This document shows, piece by piece, positions 8,833-24,240 of a stretch of DNA of 51,599 bases. Source of the DNA: Candidatus Doudnabacteria bacterium (GTDB lineage: Bacteria > Patescibacteriota > Doudnabacteria > UBA920); assembly GCA_023245995.1 (NCBI GenBank), contig JAHFJH010000005.1:1-51599 (forward strand), given 5' to 3'. Made by a program: the position numbers and the translations under genes. The notes below the pieces were generated by a model. The model ran no database searches, was not told where the DNA came from, and saw only the letters and a list, made by a program, of their open reading frames with translations. The stretch's first letter is position 1. Every line of letters begins with the position of its first letter.

Positions 8833-9894
8833 CTACTGTTGCTCTGGTGGTGGCAGTTTTGTAACCGCCATTAAGTAGGGGCCGGTGCTGTAGCCGGATA
8901 TGACGTCGGTCAAAATAAGTTTTTCGGGGTTGTTAAGATCCCGAGAAAATATTTTTACCGAATTTGGTCTTGCCCCTCTTGGTGCTTGGCTAGCTACTGC
9001 AACCCAGTCTCCAAAGCACGTAATACCGTAGTAGTAGGTGCTTGAGTCCAACTCGCCCTGTGCTACCAGCTCGCCGCTTTGCGCATTAAGAGCCAGTGGG
9101 AAACCAAATCCTTGGAGGGTATATACGAGGGACTTATCCTCATTTATGTCCAAGGTAAATGCACCGCCAAACTGCGGATTTAGTTTGATGACTTTAACCA
9201 CCTTGAAACTTGGTATGTCAACCACAGTGACACCGGGAGCGTATGGCGTTTCATTGGTGACGTACAGATTGTCACCAATTATTGCCATGCCTCTGGCTCC
9301 GGACATGCCTTGTATGGTGTCGGTTTCACCGGTGAGTAAGTTTATTCGATAGAGCAATCCACCTTCTTGGCTACCCGTAACGAATAGGAAGTTTTCGTCT
9401 GCTGACAGCAGGCAAAATTTTATCGCCCATTCAGCCCACCTTCCGAGTTTAACGGGAATAATGCTGGTTGTGCCGTCTACAAGATTGCAGTCGTAGACGA
9501 CATGGTCTATTTTGTCGGTGACAAACATGCGTTTGCCGTTTTTGGTTATGGCAATGCCAAACGGGCTTCCTTTTTCTGCCACGTTGGCAATTTTGGTAGA
9601 GCCTAACCGCTGAAGACTCAGTACATCAAACGCGTCTACATCTCCTTGGTCGTTGTTGTCTGCACAAGCAATGCGGACAACGCCGTTGTTAATTGAAATG
9701 CCATAGGCTTTGCCACCCATGGGAATGCTATTCATTGCAACTACCCGTCCGTTTTGAATGTCAAACACTCCTACCATAGTGCCTTGTTCGTACCCGACGA
9801 AAAGGCGATATGTATTTGGTGTTGTGCTCTGTGCACCCGCCAATTTGGTTTGCGACAGTGCAAAAATTGCGACCATCAAAAAACGTGTAAACAT
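8833..9894 (-). CDS. secreted YVTN/YncE-like beta-propeller protein
   Basis: AAAGGAG SD before ATG 9894; signal peptide MFTRFLMVAIFALSQ; repeats PFGIAIT..GKRMFVTD, ARGMAI..DNLYVTN and GVTVVD. Confidence 0.75.
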   Translation of the reverse strand: MFTRFLMVAIFALSQTKLAGAQSTTPNTYRLFVGYEQGTMVGVFDIQNGRVVAMNSIPMGGKAYGISINNGVVRIACADNNDQGDVDAFDVLSLQRLGSTKIANVAEKGSPFGIAITKNGKRMFVTDKIDHVVYDCNLVDGTTSIIPVKLGRWAEWAIKFCLLSADENFLFVTGSQEGGLLYRINLLTGETDTIQGMSGARGMAIIGDNLYVTNETPYAPGVTVVDIPSFKVVKVIKLNPQFGGAFTLDINEDKSLVYTLQGFGFPLALNAQSGELVAQGELDSSTYYYGITCFGDWVAVASQAPRGARPNSVKIFSRDLNNPEKLILTDVISGYSTGPYLMAVTKLPPPEQQ

Positions 9895-10283
9895 TTGTAG
9901 CTCCTTTGTTGATGTGAATGTGCGGCATGTCTCGCATGTGTGCGAGTAGCATGGTTTTTCAGATATCCCTAACATACTCGTACGCAATACAATAGTCAAC
10001 AGAGGGATGTGATATGCATAACACAAAAGTTAAGACTAAAATTTGTAGGAAGCAAAGTGTTATTGTCCATACCACAAAATGGTGCCATTGTTTGTGGTTT
10101 TGTTTGGTTTAACTTTTTTGCTTCACGCACTAAACGTGCTGGGCGACCACATAACAGCAATTGTCTGGCCGATAATCTTAATAGCTATTGGCCTTCAAAA
10201 GAATTTTGAAATGCGTTGTACATGTTGCAGTAGAATGTAGTTATTTGATGCATAAACATCCTTATTGCGGGGATGTTTTGCTA

Positions 10284-10313
10284 TTGCGTGTTATTGTTTA
10301 GTTTTGCTATAAT
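10284..10313 (+). promoter_or_regulatory. probable promoter of tRNA-Asn
   Basis: TTGCGT, 18 bp, then TATAAT preceded by TG (extended -10), about 30 nt upstream of the tRNA. Confidence 0.55.
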
Positions 10314-10378
10314 AAGACGGTCAATTTATACAAAATTGATGTGTTCGGGAGTAGCTCAGCGGTAGAGCAATCGGCTGT

Positions 10379-10931
10379 CAGGTACACAATTATCTGCAAA
10401 TTTATGGTAGATAAAAGAACCTACAAAGACCGCGCCACATATTTAATTAAGGCCGTGGCTAAAAGGCGTAAATCGCTTAAAGCTCAGGCGTTGGATTATA
10501 AAGGTGGCAAATGCGCTATATGTGGATACGATAAATGCTCTAGTGCTTTAGAGTTCCATCATATAGACCCAAAACAAAAAGATTTTGGCATAGGCGAGAA
10601 AGGCTATACAAGATCTTGGGAGAAGGTGAAGCATGAATTGGATAAATGCATACTCATTTGTTCAAACTGTCACCATGAAGTGCATGCGGGTCAAGTGCAG
10701 CTTCCTTCGGTAACGATGGAATGATAACGAGGTGAATTGACTGGAAGCCGTAATCTGCCAACTGGCGGAACGGTAATCAGCAGCCAAGCTTTGACGAAAG
10801 TCATTGAAGGTTCAGAGACTATCCCTTACGGGAGTACTTCTCTAACACATGTTAGAGCGGGAAGCGCCTCGCATCCTACTTGTTAGGATGATGATATAGT
10901 CCACCCCCAGTAGAAATACTAGGACAATGTG
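10379..10931 (+). mobile_element. group I self-splicing intron (553 nt) at tRNA position 35/36
   Basis: Exon ends in U and intron ends in G; P1 GGCTGT/GCAGCT (10697-10702) with U.G at the splice site; P3 CGAGGTG/CGCCTCG; P AATTGACTGGAA; Q AATCAGCAGCC; R GTTCAGAGACTA (10810-10821); S ATGATATAGTCC (10891-10902); P8 CATCCTA/TAGGATG; P9 with GAAA loop. Confidence 0.93.
10404..10724 (+). CDS. intron-encoded HNH endonuclease (putative homing endonuclease)
   Basis: 106 aa from ATG 10404: CAICGY...LEFHHIDP...CILICSNCHHEVH, a Zn-binding HNH signature. Confidence 0.88.
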   Translation: MVDKRTYKDRATYLIKAVAKRRKSLKAQALDYKGGKCAICGYDKCSSALEFHHIDPKQKDFGIGEKGYTRSWEKVKHELDKCILICSNCHHEVHAGQVQLPSVTME

Positions 10932-10974
10932 TAACCGATGGGTCCTGGGTTCGAATCCCAGCTCCCGAGCCAGC

Positions 10975-11005
10975 AAAAAACCACTAACCTGTTTGGTGGT
11001 TTTTT
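10975..11005 (+). terminator. intrinsic terminator after tRNA
   Basis: AAAAAACCACTAA/TTGGTGGTTTTTT. Confidence 0.75.
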
Positions 11006-11019
11006 GTTATTATTAGCCT

Positions 11020-21045: not shown

Positions 21046-24000
21046 ATGAGACATTTTTTAGCAAAGCTTGCCGTAGTCGCTGTTTTGGCTACACCGCTTG
21101 CAGGGTTGCTGCCACTTGCAGCTTCAGCTGCGGGTCCGGCTCAAGTTAATCTTTTATCGGCCGGTAATTTTTCTCTTCTCTCCAGCGCAGGGATAACAAA
21201 TACAGGTAGTCATTCAACAATTGTGGCCGGTAATGTTGGGGCGAGTCCTATTACCGCCGCTTCTATGAATAGTGTATTTTGTTCAGAAATCACGGGCACC
21301 ATATATGGTGTAGACGCGGCCTATGTTGGTAGTGGTAGCCAAACTTGTTTTGCGGGCAATCCGCCTCTTGCAAACAAAACATTGGTGGACAACGCGGTAG
21401 GCGATATGAATACAGCCTACATCGACGCTGCTGGCAGGACACTTCCAGACGGAATAGATTTATATAGTGGAAATTTGGGTGGGCAAACGCTAACACCCGG
21501 ACTTTATAAATGGAATACCGACGTTACTATTCCCACAAGTGTAATCCTTTCTGGTTCCGCAACTGACGTATGGATATTCCAAATATCTGGAAACTTAAAC
21601 GTTGCTTCTAGTGGCAGTGTACCTACAGGTGTAAAAGTTATACTCTTAGGTGGAGCCAATGCTTCCAATATTTTTTGGCAGGTTGGCGGAAGCATAGGTG
21701 CAACACTAGGCACGTACGCAACGTTTAACGGCAACATACTAAGTGCAAAACAAGTTATTATACAAACCGGAGCAGTTCTTAACGGTAGGGCTTTAGCTCA
21801 AACACAAATTACTTTAGACGCAAATACAATCTCAGTTCCTCCATCTAGTGTGGCTCCTCAAACATGTGCCACTATAAATTTGGCCAGTGGAACAAGTACT
21901 AAAACAGCAGGATTTACAGAAACAACTCAAAACTCTCCTGTAACTGCACTGCTCCCTGCTTCGTATAGTGTTGGAAGTTTGGCGCCAGCCACCGTCACTT
22001 TACCAGTTATACCACCGTGGGTGGACCCAAGTCTAGACGCAAACTTTACAGGTACGGGTGCTTTGTGGACCTCAACTCATGCCACTTGGCCCGGTGGAAG
22101 TGGTAACGTCGAAGGTTTGCCAAGTAGCGACCAGTGGAGACTGTTCGAAGATAATTTTAACCTCCCAGTTGGCGCAACGGTGACTTCTGCTAACCTCTCT
22201 TTTTCTGGCGACAACGCGGTTGACGTATATTTAAACGGAAATACTACCCCTGTAGCTACTACAAACAACACCTATGGGGCGGTACCTGGAGCGTTGCCAC
22301 AGAATTTTGCAAGCAGTTTTAACACTCCATTTGTGCCTGTGATTGGCAACAATGCACTAGATTTTGTTTTAAGAAATTGGGGCGGGGATTACTCTTCTAA
22401 CCCGACTGGTTTGTTGTACAAAGCTACTATAAATTACTGTGTCCCAACTCCTCCCGAAAGTGTACAAGTACATATTTATAAATATATAGACGGAGTACAC
22501 GCAACGAGTTTGCCTGCTAGTGCCAATGGAGCAAGTTTCCCTATGCTCACTTCCTATAGCGACCCAAATGTTGGTGCGGGCACTAACGTACCATTTACAC
22601 TAAATCAAAATGGCTGGACAACCGGCGACCTGCCATATGAAGCATCTACTGGTCCAAGAACTTTAGGGTCTTCTGCAAGTTTTTCCGAAGACACAACAAC
22701 AGCACTTGTTGGTGCCATCTGCACACTTGGCACTAAATATGCTTTAGAGGGTTATAGTGTTGGAACGACATTGGCTGAGGCAGTGGCCAGTCCAGCTACT
22801 GCAAGCTCGCCTAGTTTTTCTTCGCTTGCAACCGATGAGTATGTAATTGTTCGTAATACTTCCTGCCCAGTTACGCCTCCAACATCACTTAAGGTACACA
22901 TATTAAAGTACTTAAATGGGCAAAAAGCAACGCTTGCAACCGCCAATAATTATCAGTTTCCTATGACTGCAACATGGAGCGCCCAAAATATTGGTGCGGG
23001 TAGCGGCAGTTATGTCCTTGGGACTAATTTTGGTGGGGCTGTGGATGTGTATGGTGCAGATACATCTACCATGACAGCACCGGCTAACTATGTTACCGCT
23101 GAAGTAACAGACAACACGAGCCAAGTTGTTGCAATGCCTGAAGCTTGTTTGCCAGGTAAGTATCTTTTAAATGGGTACAGAAGTAGTGCTGTAAGCTTTC
23201 TGGATGCAGTAACTCAACCGCTTCAGTTGGTGTCACCTAGCTTTACCAACTTACTGAGCGACGAATACATAATTGTCGACAATGCGAGTTGTCCTACTAC
23301 CGGAAGTTTAACCGTACAAAAAGACACAATTGGTGGAAATGGCACATTTAGCTTTAACGGAGATGGAGGCGTGGGTGCTTTCCAAATAACGACTACTAGC
23401 AATACTGGTAGCAAGACTTTCACCAACTTAACTCCTGGTACGTATCATATAGTTGAAAGTGTGCAGGCTAAATGGACACAGACAGATACTGAATGCGCAA
23501 GCGTGGTGGTGGTCGCTGGAGCTTCTCCAACTTGTGTTATTACAAATGCCAACAATAAGTTGCTTGGAGAAATTCGCGGAACCAAATACGAGGACCGTGA
23601 CGGTGACGGCAAACTTAAAGACGGAGACCATCATAAACTTTCGGGTTGGACTATTTTCTTAGACACAAACAATAACGGGGTCTTAGATACCGGAGAAATG
23701 TCTACAGTAACAAACAGTCATGGTGAGTATCATTTCTCAGGGCTTATAGCTGGTAGTTACCACGTTCGCGAAGTAGGGCAAACAGGCTGGATGCAAACAT
23801 ATCCAACTAGCGGTAAGTACGACATTATGCTCGCTAGCGGACAGCTTGCTAAGAAAAAAGATTTTGGTAACTTTAAATTCGGAAGTATTTCTGGTATGAA
23901 GTTTAACGACGCAAATGCCAATGGTAAAAAAGACATAATGGAAGTTGGGCTTGCAGGTTGGACAATTAACTTAAAAGGTCCAAATGGTTTTATGGCAACA

Positions 24001-24240
24001 ATGGTTACGGACTTGAACGGGAGTTATACGTTTGAAAACCTTGGTCCAGGAAAGTATATGCTCAGCGAAGTTATGCAAAACACTTGGACGCAGACTATGC
24101 ATCCAAATTGGGTTAAAGTTCAGTCAGGGACAACGTCTATAAACAACAACTTTGGTAACACACAAAAAGTGCTTAATCTAAGGTGGCATGAAAATGACCG
24201 CGATAACGATGAAGACTATAACTTCAGAAAGAGAAATTAA
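21046..24240 (+). CDS. secreted multidomain protein with DUF3494 ice-binding domain and SdrD-B-like repeats
   Basis: Signal peptide; LGGQTLTPGLYKW, WIFQISG.L, ASNIFWQVG..ATLGT..F.GNIL and LNGRALAQTQITLDAN; C-terminal GTKYEDRDGDG...LSGWTIFLD and GMKFNDANANG...GLAGWTI. Confidence 0.88.
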   Translation: MRHFLAKLAVVAVLATPLAGLLPLAASAAGPAQVNLLSAGNFSLLSSAGITNTGSHSTIVAGNVGASPITAASMNSVFCSEITGTIYGVDAAYVGSGSQTCFAGNPPLANKTLVDNAVGDMNTAYIDAAGRTLPDGIDLYSGNLGGQTLTPGLYKWNTDVTIPTSVILSGSATDVWIFQISGNLNVASSGSVPTGVKVILLGGANASNIFWQVGGSIGATLGTYATFNGNILSAKQVIIQTGAVLNGRALAQTQITLDANTISVPPSSVAPQTCATINLASGTSTKTAGFTETTQNSPVTALLPASYSVGSLAPATVTLPVIPPWVDPSLDANFTGTGALWTSTHATWPGGSGNVEGLPSSDQWRLFEDNFNLPVGATVTSANLSFSGDNAVDVYLNGNTTPVATTNNTYGAVPGALPQNFASSFNTPFVPVIGNNALDFVLRNWGGDYSSNPTGLLYKATINYCVPTPPESVQVHIYKYIDGVHATSLPASANGASFPMLTSYSDPNVGAGTNVPFTLNQNGWTTGDLPYEASTGPRTLGSSASFSEDTTTALVGAICTLGTKYALEGYSVGTTLAEAVASPATASSPSFSSLATDEYVIVRNTSCPVTPPTSLKVHILKYLNGQKATLATANNYQFPMTATWSAQNIGAGSGSYVLGTNFGGAVDVYGADTSTMTAPANYVTAEVTDNTSQVVAMPEACLPGKYLLNGYRSSAVSFLDAVTQPLQLVSPSFTNLLSDEYIIVDNASCPTTGSLTVQKDTIGGNGTFSFNGDGGVGAFQITTTSNTGSKTFTNLTPGTYHIVESVQAKWTQTDTECASVVVVAGASPTCVITNANNKLLGEIRGTKYEDRDGDGKLKDGDHHKLSGWTIFLDTNNNGVLDTGEMSTVTNSHGEYHFSGLIAGSYHVREVGQTGWMQTYPTSGKYDIMLASGQLAKKKDFGNFKFGSISGMKFNDANANGKKDIMEVGLAGWTINLKGPNGFMATMVTDLNGSYTFENLGPGKYMLSEVMQNTWTQTMHPNWVKVQSGTTSINNNFGNTQKVLNLRWHENDRDNDEDYNFRKRN

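Follow-up and report, generated by a model that had tools for sequence, protein, structure and literature searches.

A tRNA-Asn(GUU) gene of Candidatus Doudnabacteria, split within the anticodon by a probable group I intron of the homing type

Introduction

Group I introns of tRNA genes have been catalogued on a large scale, i.e., 5292 introns in 21 settings, 17 of them new (Williams, 2020, 10.1101/2020.01.27.920355). The accompanying nomenclature counts the loop nucleotides ahead of the slash; an intron in tRNA-Leu, CUU/a..g/AAAA, is denoted '3Ug'. The classical settings, Leu(UAA) '3Ug', fMet '2Ug', Ile(CAU) '5Ug', and Arg(CCU) '5Ug', are all marked as subgroup IC3 (10.1101/2020.01.27.920355). 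Here we analyze a stretch of 51,599 nucleotides from a Candidatus Doudnabacteria bacterium (assembly GCA_023245995.1, contig JAHFJH010000005.1, positions 1 to 51,599 of the forward strand), referred to as the window. We consider it very probable that the single tRNA-Asn(GUU) gene of this genome is interrupted between U35 and U36 by an IA-like group I intron of 553 nt which carries an HNH endonuclease gene in loop L1 and constitutes an element of the homing type. According to Williams' rule the intron, CUGU/c..g/UAA, is 'Asn.4Ug'.

Like the classical bacterial tRNA introns the element resides in an anticodon loop, follows a U, has a short paired region P1 formed by anticodon-loop nucleotides, and occurs sporadically among relatives. 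The classical introns differ with respect to host tRNA and position; the 35/36 site, the additional hairpins P7.1 and P7.2, and the HNH gene in L1 set the window intron apart. In Synechocystis, the nuclease encoded by the fMet intron is of another kind.

In Patescibacteria, also termed the Candidate Phyla Radiation (CPR), introns are on record in 16S and 23S rRNA genes (Brown et al., 2015; Tsurumaki et al., 2024, as cited in passages of PMC11809585 and PMC12641178). As far as these passages go, the rRNA introns share with our element the host phylum and the theme of intron-rich structural RNA genes with homing endonucleases. In contrast, the target in the window is a tRNA, and the intron is the sole match to the group I model RF00028 in the 949-kb assembly. 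That some CPR tRNAs carry group I introns is mentioned in passing in a section of PMC8172020; the short cyanobacterial inserts, as they appear in an excerpt of PMC5733544, are different from the window element. A literature search retrieved no paper text describing a tRNA-Asn group I intron; the main text of Williams (2020) contains neither 'Asn' nor '4Ug' nor 'HNH', its list of settings being placed in image tables and supplements. The original prediction, which was made by a model from the letters of the window, mentioned a report of 35/36 Asn introns in Patescibacteria. The title of a 2025 preprint fits this statement. The element described below is a further, well-preserved instance of a common kind; it adds detail, not a new principle.

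The split tRNA gene and its junction

The two tRNA halves are located on the forward strand at 10345-10378 and 10932-10972. They are separated by an insert of 553 nt (10379-10931), with U10378 ahead of the 5' splice site and G10931 as the terminal base of the insert, just as predicted. The 5' exon comprises tRNA nt 1-35 and ends with the anticodon bases G34 and U35. The 3' exon, nt 36-76, contributes U36, the anticodon stem, variable loop, T arm, acceptor strand, the discriminator base G73, and an encoded CCA. A scripted join at 10378|10932 yields a cloverleaf of 75 nt which ARAGORN, when applied to the joined exons, calls tRNA-Asn(gtt). In default mode ARAGORN reports no tRNA gene in the whole window, in agreement with the warning that standard tRNA finders may miss this gene. 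In intron mode (-i) it labels the locus tRNA-Thr(TGT) with a join at 10376|10930. The original prediction that a canonical cloverleaf emerges only from CUGU|UAA was therefore too strong. Because the intron ends in GUG a second formal join exists, again with a U ahead of the 5' site and a G ahead of the 3' site, and comparative data are needed to choose between the two.

A BLAST search with positions 10330-10990 against 61 related genomes yielded matches in 44, and 20 loci were examined. In 13 genomes among them, our own included, the gene is interrupted at exactly the same place, CGGCTGT|...G|TAACCG, by an intron whose length ranges from 209 to 601 nt. L014, L017, and L020 have no intron. They show no mismatch to either window exon, their 5' half being identical to the 5' exon, and they read CTGTTAA; RF00005 scores 72.5 bits on these genes. 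The gathering score of RF00028 is reached by the loci of 15 of 19 relatives. An HNH-bearing intron occupies the same site in four further order-level relatives, and in a fifth, G044, ribozyme and exon 2 are present in the part of the locus covered. Among the 61 genomes searched, 17 are verified carriers (own genome included), one is a partial case, and 14 are verified as intronless.

The search was then widened. A pattern derived from an alignment of four HNH proteins was scanned against one genome per species, 185,579 species in total, with 596 matches; tblastn confirmed 442, and the best 80 of these were kept. In 75 of the 80 loci a split tRNA surrounds the HNH gene; the other five comprise two free-standing genes and three loci without a tRNA call. 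All 75 split tRNAs permit a single reading, stem-CTGT|intron...G|TAA-stem'. Judged by their record titles, the 80 loci come from Acidobacteriota (about 22), many Patescibacteria lineages, Omnitrophota, Elusimicrobia, and others, with the proviso that automatic labels of metagenome-assembled genomes may be unreliable. Within these best related loci the HNH-intron at the tRNA-Asn 35/36 site spans many phyla (75 of 80).

These data bear directly on the reading suggested by ARAGORN, a tRNA-Thr(UGU) gene split after U33 at 10376|10930. It has formal merits. The join generates a perfect cloverleaf, both splice sites carry the expected neighboring bases, and ARAGORN -i returns Thr(tgt) here and at many homologous loci. 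Yet the intronless alleles read CTGTTAA and not CTTGTAA, and 38 of the 75 homologues have introns with a 3' end other than GTG, for which the Thr join is impossible. The ribozyme itself points the same way. Its guide, GCAGC, pairs with CUGU, not with a sequence ending at U33, and the GU directly before G10931 is used by P9.0. Further, a tRNA-Thr(UGU) gene already exists in the genome, with U73 and an unrelated acceptor stem. The comparative data refute the Thr identity, and we assign it practically no probability.

The source genome has 0.95 Mb in 54 contigs and is 96% complete. ARAGORN detects 43 other tRNA genes which cover 19 amino acids, including Thr with the anticodons UGU, CGU, and GGU. 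A check for a further tRNA-Asn, as had been advised, found none among these 43 genes. All three tRNA-Thr possess U73 and acceptor stems unrelated to that of the split tRNA, which has G73. In E. coli the G73 discriminator is an Asn identity element. The assignment as tRNA-Asn(GUU), with a group I intron at 35/36 as originally proposed, follows from intronless alleles with identical exons, from 85 homologous introns, from P1 and the covariation of P9.0 as detailed below, and from the lack of any other tRNA-Asn in the genome.

As a side observation, tRNA-Asn exons were encountered at contig ends in two genomes (G021, C15:3-37 and C20:11563-11611; G014, C1:50-90). Assemblies may break at the tRNA-Asn locus, perhaps due to co-occurring intron-bearing and intronless forms.

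The ribozyme fold

The intron extends from the first base after U35 to the terminal omega-G (10379-10931); its ends are set by the intronless alleles, P1, and P9.0. The recommended check with Infernal and a group I model was clear-cut. RF00028 matches positions 10697-10923 over its full length (model positions 1-253) with 71.7 bits and an E-value of 2.5e-16, well above the gathering score of 50. For comparative purposes 85 distinct cores were aligned from the guide sequence to exon 2. RF00028 alignment and covariation in this set bear out the elements which had been predicted in the insert, P1 with its U.G pair, P3, P7, P8, and P9.

The 5' strand of P1, GGCUGU (10373-10378), is provided by tRNA nt 30-35. 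The 3' strand is the internal guide sequence, GCAGCU (10697-10702), directly 5' of P2, in which G10697 forms the wobble pair with U35, i.e., U10378. The guide GCAGC (10697-10701) is invariant in all 85 cores, and the four loop pairs, C32, U33, G34, and U35 with the guide, the last as U35.G wobble, are formed in 85 of 85. Because the anticodon loop is fixed these pairs cannot covary. The guide remains unchanged even where nt 31 is an A or a C, and 19 of the 85 cores are unpaired at this position. Next to the wobble, intron +1 and guide -1 form a pair that is free to vary: it is present in 80 of 85 cores (AU 32, GC 31, GU 13, UA 4), whereas 1000 shuffles gave 60 on average and never more than 68.

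The subsequent elements are arranged as expected of a group I core. P2 (10702-10722) is a hairpin with a GUAA loop; all of its six pairs have compensatory changes and 99.4% of the alignment cells are paired. It is followed by the 5' strand of P3 (10728-10732) and the P4-P5-P6 domain (10739-10811). The 5' strand of P7, GACUA (10817-10821), pairs with 10897-10901 and is invariant in the 85 cores except for one pair with four compensatory changes. The region 10865-10901 contains the 3' strand of P3 (10867-10871), P8 (10872-10890), J8/7, and the 3' strand of P7 (10897-10901). At the 3' end, P9.0 is formed by AC (10903-10904) and GU (10929-10930), and the P9 hairpin spans 10907-10922. P9.0 is paired in 98.2% of the cells with AU, GC, CG, and UA covariation, and this covariation fixes the omega-G as position 10931, which is invariant in 85 of 85 cores.

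An RNAalifold consensus contains P2, P3, P4, P5, P6/6a, P8, P9.0, and P9, with compensatory changes in 34 of 40 pairs. When P7 and P7.1 are added, 93.9% of 4036 cells are paired and changes on both sides are seen in 39 of 48 pairs. The corresponding controls are 69.1% in shuffled alignments, with none of 500 as high, and 30-45% when the partners are slid by one to three columns. At none of the 71 columns which are conserved to at least 90% does the window copy deviate from the consensus base, and 36 of its 40 consensus pairs are canonical. By these measures the window's intron looks intact.

An IA-like core

Reportedly, Michel and Westhof in 1990 defined subgroup IA by the extra pairings P7.1/P7.2 between the 5' strand of P7 and the 3' strand of P3. 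At precisely this place, RF00028 positions 148/149, the window intron contains an insert of 41 nt which folds as P7.1 (TCCC-TTAC-GGGA, 10822-10833) and P7.2 (CTCTAAC/GTTAGAG, 10840-10857). In IC3 introns the core is compact, with no pairings separating P7 from P3'; the 41-nt insert sets the window intron apart from these. An insert of at least 25 nt is present in 77 of the 85 cores and absent in eight. Folded sequence by sequence, it yields two hairpins in 46 of 85, one long hairpin in 30, and three hairpins in one. The five long-hairpin folds which were inspected all stem from Acidobacteriota or Acetothermia loci.

For comparison we used three introns of phage T4, nrdD, td, and nrdB, which are noted as 'group 1A intron' in record AF158101.6. 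Each of the three is likewise extended by 29-39 nt at RF00028 position 148/149, and nrdD and td share with the window the motif GACUA-UCCC...GGGA-GUA-hairpin-GAA. The T4 introns are also mobile and carry endonuclease genes of their own, and I-TevIII in nrdB is annotated as a member of the H-N-H family. They are unlike our element in that their hosts are protein-coding phage genes and that I-TevI and I-TevII are GIY-YIG enzymes. Nor does sequence similarity to them extend past the core; a blastn search of the window core against 50,697 phage records gave only short matches with 22-26% coverage, none to T4. Position of the insert, folds, and the motif shared with the T4 introns support an IA-like core; the hairpins lie between P7 and P3' as had been noticed beforehand, and the T4 comparison agrees with the subgroup suggested at that time.

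At the same tRNA-Asn 35/36 site at least three types of cores are thus seen in the alignment, i.e., those with P7.1 and P7.2, those with one long hairpin, and those lacking the insert. Differently structured cores are found in L010, L097, L058, L066, L076, L077, L080, L081, and about 30 rows of an Acidobacteriota type; L010 and L097 differ in P3-P6 as well.

The HNH endonuclease gene

Downstream of the 5' splice site and ahead of the guide, loop L1 harbors an intact open reading frame (ORF) of 106 aa plus stop codon on the forward strand (10404-10724), the last 28 nt of which overlap guide and P2. It was absent from the earlier description of the insert. The product matches PHROG 2255 'HNH endonuclease' with an E-value of 2.9e-31 and Pfam PF01844 (HNH) with 21.4 bits and 2.8e-4; a search of NCBIfam gave nothing meaningful. 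Intact ORFs in L002, L003, and L007 are 64-66% identical to that of the window. In the alignment of these four HNH proteins the columns for catalysis and for zinc binding by Cys pairs, i.e., C37, C40, H52, H53, C86, N88, C89, H90, and H94, are invariant. The ORF of L008 is frameshifted, and eight of 13 introns have no ORF of such size. Intact, frameshifted, and ORF-less copies side by side are what the life cycle of a homing-endonuclease gene usually produces.

Two further arrangements were observed. In L022-L035 and similar loci (record titles Pyrinomonadaceae/Blastocatellia) the HNH frame continues past guide and P2 into P3-P5, so that some 60-100 nt are both coding and catalytic RNA sequence. 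In L090 (1501-1889) and L093 (1501-1893) the same HNH gene stands alone: there is no ribozyme, and 17-20 nt separate its end from an uninterrupted tRNA-Asn(GTT) gene downstream. Possibly, the free-standing gene represents a precursor or an alternative lifestyle of the intron-borne nuclease.

Proposed homing and co-conversion in this lineage

A different picture emerges within the genus of our genome. Six members (G002, G003, G004, G006, G007, G008; loci L102-L108) have an intronless tRNA-Asn(GTT) that deviates in anticodon arm, variable loop, and T loop. Compared to the window tRNA there are 12 differences, all within nt 25-58 (window 10369-10955), while the first 24 and the last 17 nt are equal. 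The arm of the window tRNA is of the type which other genera of the family possess, with or without intron.

For the adjacent DEAD-box helicase a maximum-likelihood tree was calculated with 29 rows; the fragmented G004 was left out. The genus is monophyletic (100/100), and our genome, G000, is nested within it as (G000,(G008,(G005,G003))) at 100/95, with (G002,G007,G001,G006) as sister clade at 96/94. The other arm type accordingly occurs on both sides of our branch, in G002, G006, and G007 as well as in G003 and G008. The immediate flanks of the tRNA are orthologous: positions 10302-10368 share 77-80% identity with the sequence ahead of the uninterrupted tRNA-Asn in G002 and G007, and 10941-11004 are 80% identical to G004. 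Because our genome is nested among genomes with the other arm and the flanks are orthologous, the arm of the window tRNA is probably derived, and it matches the type that accompanies the intron in other genera. In their simplest reading these sequence comparisons indicate that the intron entered a resident gene by homing and co-converted the neighboring exon.

Could the intron splice but be no longer mobile in this lineage, having been inherited vertically while the other genus members acquired their arm by ordinary divergence? Among the sampled genomes, identity to the nearest HNH proteins reaches only 64-69% and to the nearest cores 76-78%, hence no recent donor is in hand, and the tree represents a single gene. 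Vertical descent, however, requires that the same 12 changes happened twice, in G002, G006, and G007 and again in G003 and G008. It also has to accommodate the orthologous flanks, the patchy presence of the intron among the 61 genomes (17 carriers and one partial case against 14 intronless), and the presence of both forms in one DNA run (see below). We deem vertical inheritance unlikely and favor entry by homing.

Going beyond this lineage, the intron-HNH unit might be an actively spreading pan-bacterial element aimed at the CUGUUAA loop. On arrival here it would have replaced resident sequence, 10 nt or more in the 5' exon and 9-27 nt in the 3' exon. The free-standing HNH genes of L090 and L093 would be ancestral, and such a gene would later have moved into L1 of ORF-less introns that already existed. 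This scenario is offered tentatively; we would sooner bet against it than for it.

Predicted splicing

The following course is predicted. A precursor would be transcribed from 10345 to a hairpin at about 11008. GCAGCU (10697-10702) would pair with tRNA nt 30-35 to form P1 with the U35.G10697 wobble, and an external guanosine bound in P7 would attack after U35. The omega-G 10931, positioned by P9.0, would then enter the same site, and ligation of the exons would restore the CUGUUAA loop. By analogy, the HNH product may cut intronless tRNA-Asn genes and thereby drive homing. Self-splicing, endonuclease activity, and cut site are what we infer from sequence.

For the locus 21 sequencing runs are listed, four of which were examined. 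In a groundwater DNA run a contig of 613 nt is identical to 10349-10961, i.e., the intron-bearing form is real DNA. The joint 10378>10932 is present in two contigs of a wastewater RNA run, one of 6267 nt, and in two contigs of the same groundwater DNA run; intron-bearing and intronless forms co-occur in that one DNA run.

Several observations weigh against our interpretation. Since DNA contigs contain the joined form just as RNA contigs do, it stems from intronless relatives and not from splicing; and the sample that gave the best-matching DNA run also has an RNA run, in which no contig matches the locus. P1 consists of only four to six pairs and has to close a loop of 318 nt. In the window itself a C faces a U at +1/-1, a C:U mismatch which places it among the five cores of 85 that lack this pair, and P10 finds no support, as no more than eight of 85 cores allow exon 2 +1 to pair with the guide. 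On the side of the nuclease, the Pfam HNH score is exactly at the cut-off and matches to PDB sequences are weak (best E-value 0.014). As to co-conversion, one gene tree was used, and two genus members, G001 and G005, gave no tRNA-Asn match.

Some of these points could be taken to mean that the intron is decayed and does not splice, that the gene is dead, and that Asn is decoded by a tRNA from a copy in the unassembled 4% or so of the genome. Splicing is, after all, a deduction, the assembly is fragmented and incomplete, and the C:U mismatch beside the wobble is joined by four non-canonical pairs in peripheral helices. Against such decay stand the consensus bases at all 71 highly conserved core columns, the intact HNH ORF, whereas L008 with its frameshift shows what decay looks like, and the fact that no other tRNA-Asn is found among 43 tRNAs which cover all the other 19 amino acids. 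A dead gene is therefore highly improbable in our view, and an intact intron within a functional tRNA-Asn gene is preferred.

Genomic setting

A possible extended -10 promoter element (TGnTATAAT, 10305-10313, forward strand) is situated 31 nt 5' of the tRNA, as read by eye from the letters. Downstream, a terminator-like hairpin is followed by a run of U (10972-11008, forward strand; minimum free energy fold -18.3 kcal/mol). Simple promoter and terminator scans called neither the -10 element nor the 3' hairpin. Together they may frame a monocistronic unit. The neighbors are ordinary chromosomal genes, i.e., for a FAD oxidase, the DEAD-box helicase, a pirin, and a glyoxalase.

Three observations were made in passing. 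An ORF of 397 aa on the reverse strand (8833-10026), without a Pfam match, is located between helicase and tRNA; because the distance from helicase to tRNA-Asn is only about 250-830 nt in genomes of the same genus, it looks like an insertion in our lineage. At 21046-24240 the window encodes a protein of 1064 aa with an N-terminal ice-binding-like domain (PF11999, E-value 1.3e-57) and SdrD B-like/prealbumin-fold repeats; for so small a genome this is a surface protein of large size. Lastly, ARAGORN reports a tRNA-Ile with the anticodon TAT elsewhere in the genome (contig C30, 8268-8344), which is an uncommon isoacceptor in bacteria.

Discussion

At this locus a default tRNA finder sees no tRNA-Asn and an intron-aware mode mislabels the gene as tRNA-Thr. 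Because finders miss or mislabel the gene, annotations and claims of a "missing tRNA" can be wrong at this locus, in Patescibacteria as well as in other phyla. For the organism the consequence would be that maturation of an essential tRNA, encoded by a single gene copy, requires a ribozyme, provided that the intron splices as its structure suggests. Judged from one gene tree, the locus would further be a clean natural example of intron homing with co-conversion of exon sequence in uncultured bacteria. If the unit is indeed an actively spreading element, this species would decode Asn with an anticodon arm of a foreign type, and homing would homogenize tRNA-Asn across genera.

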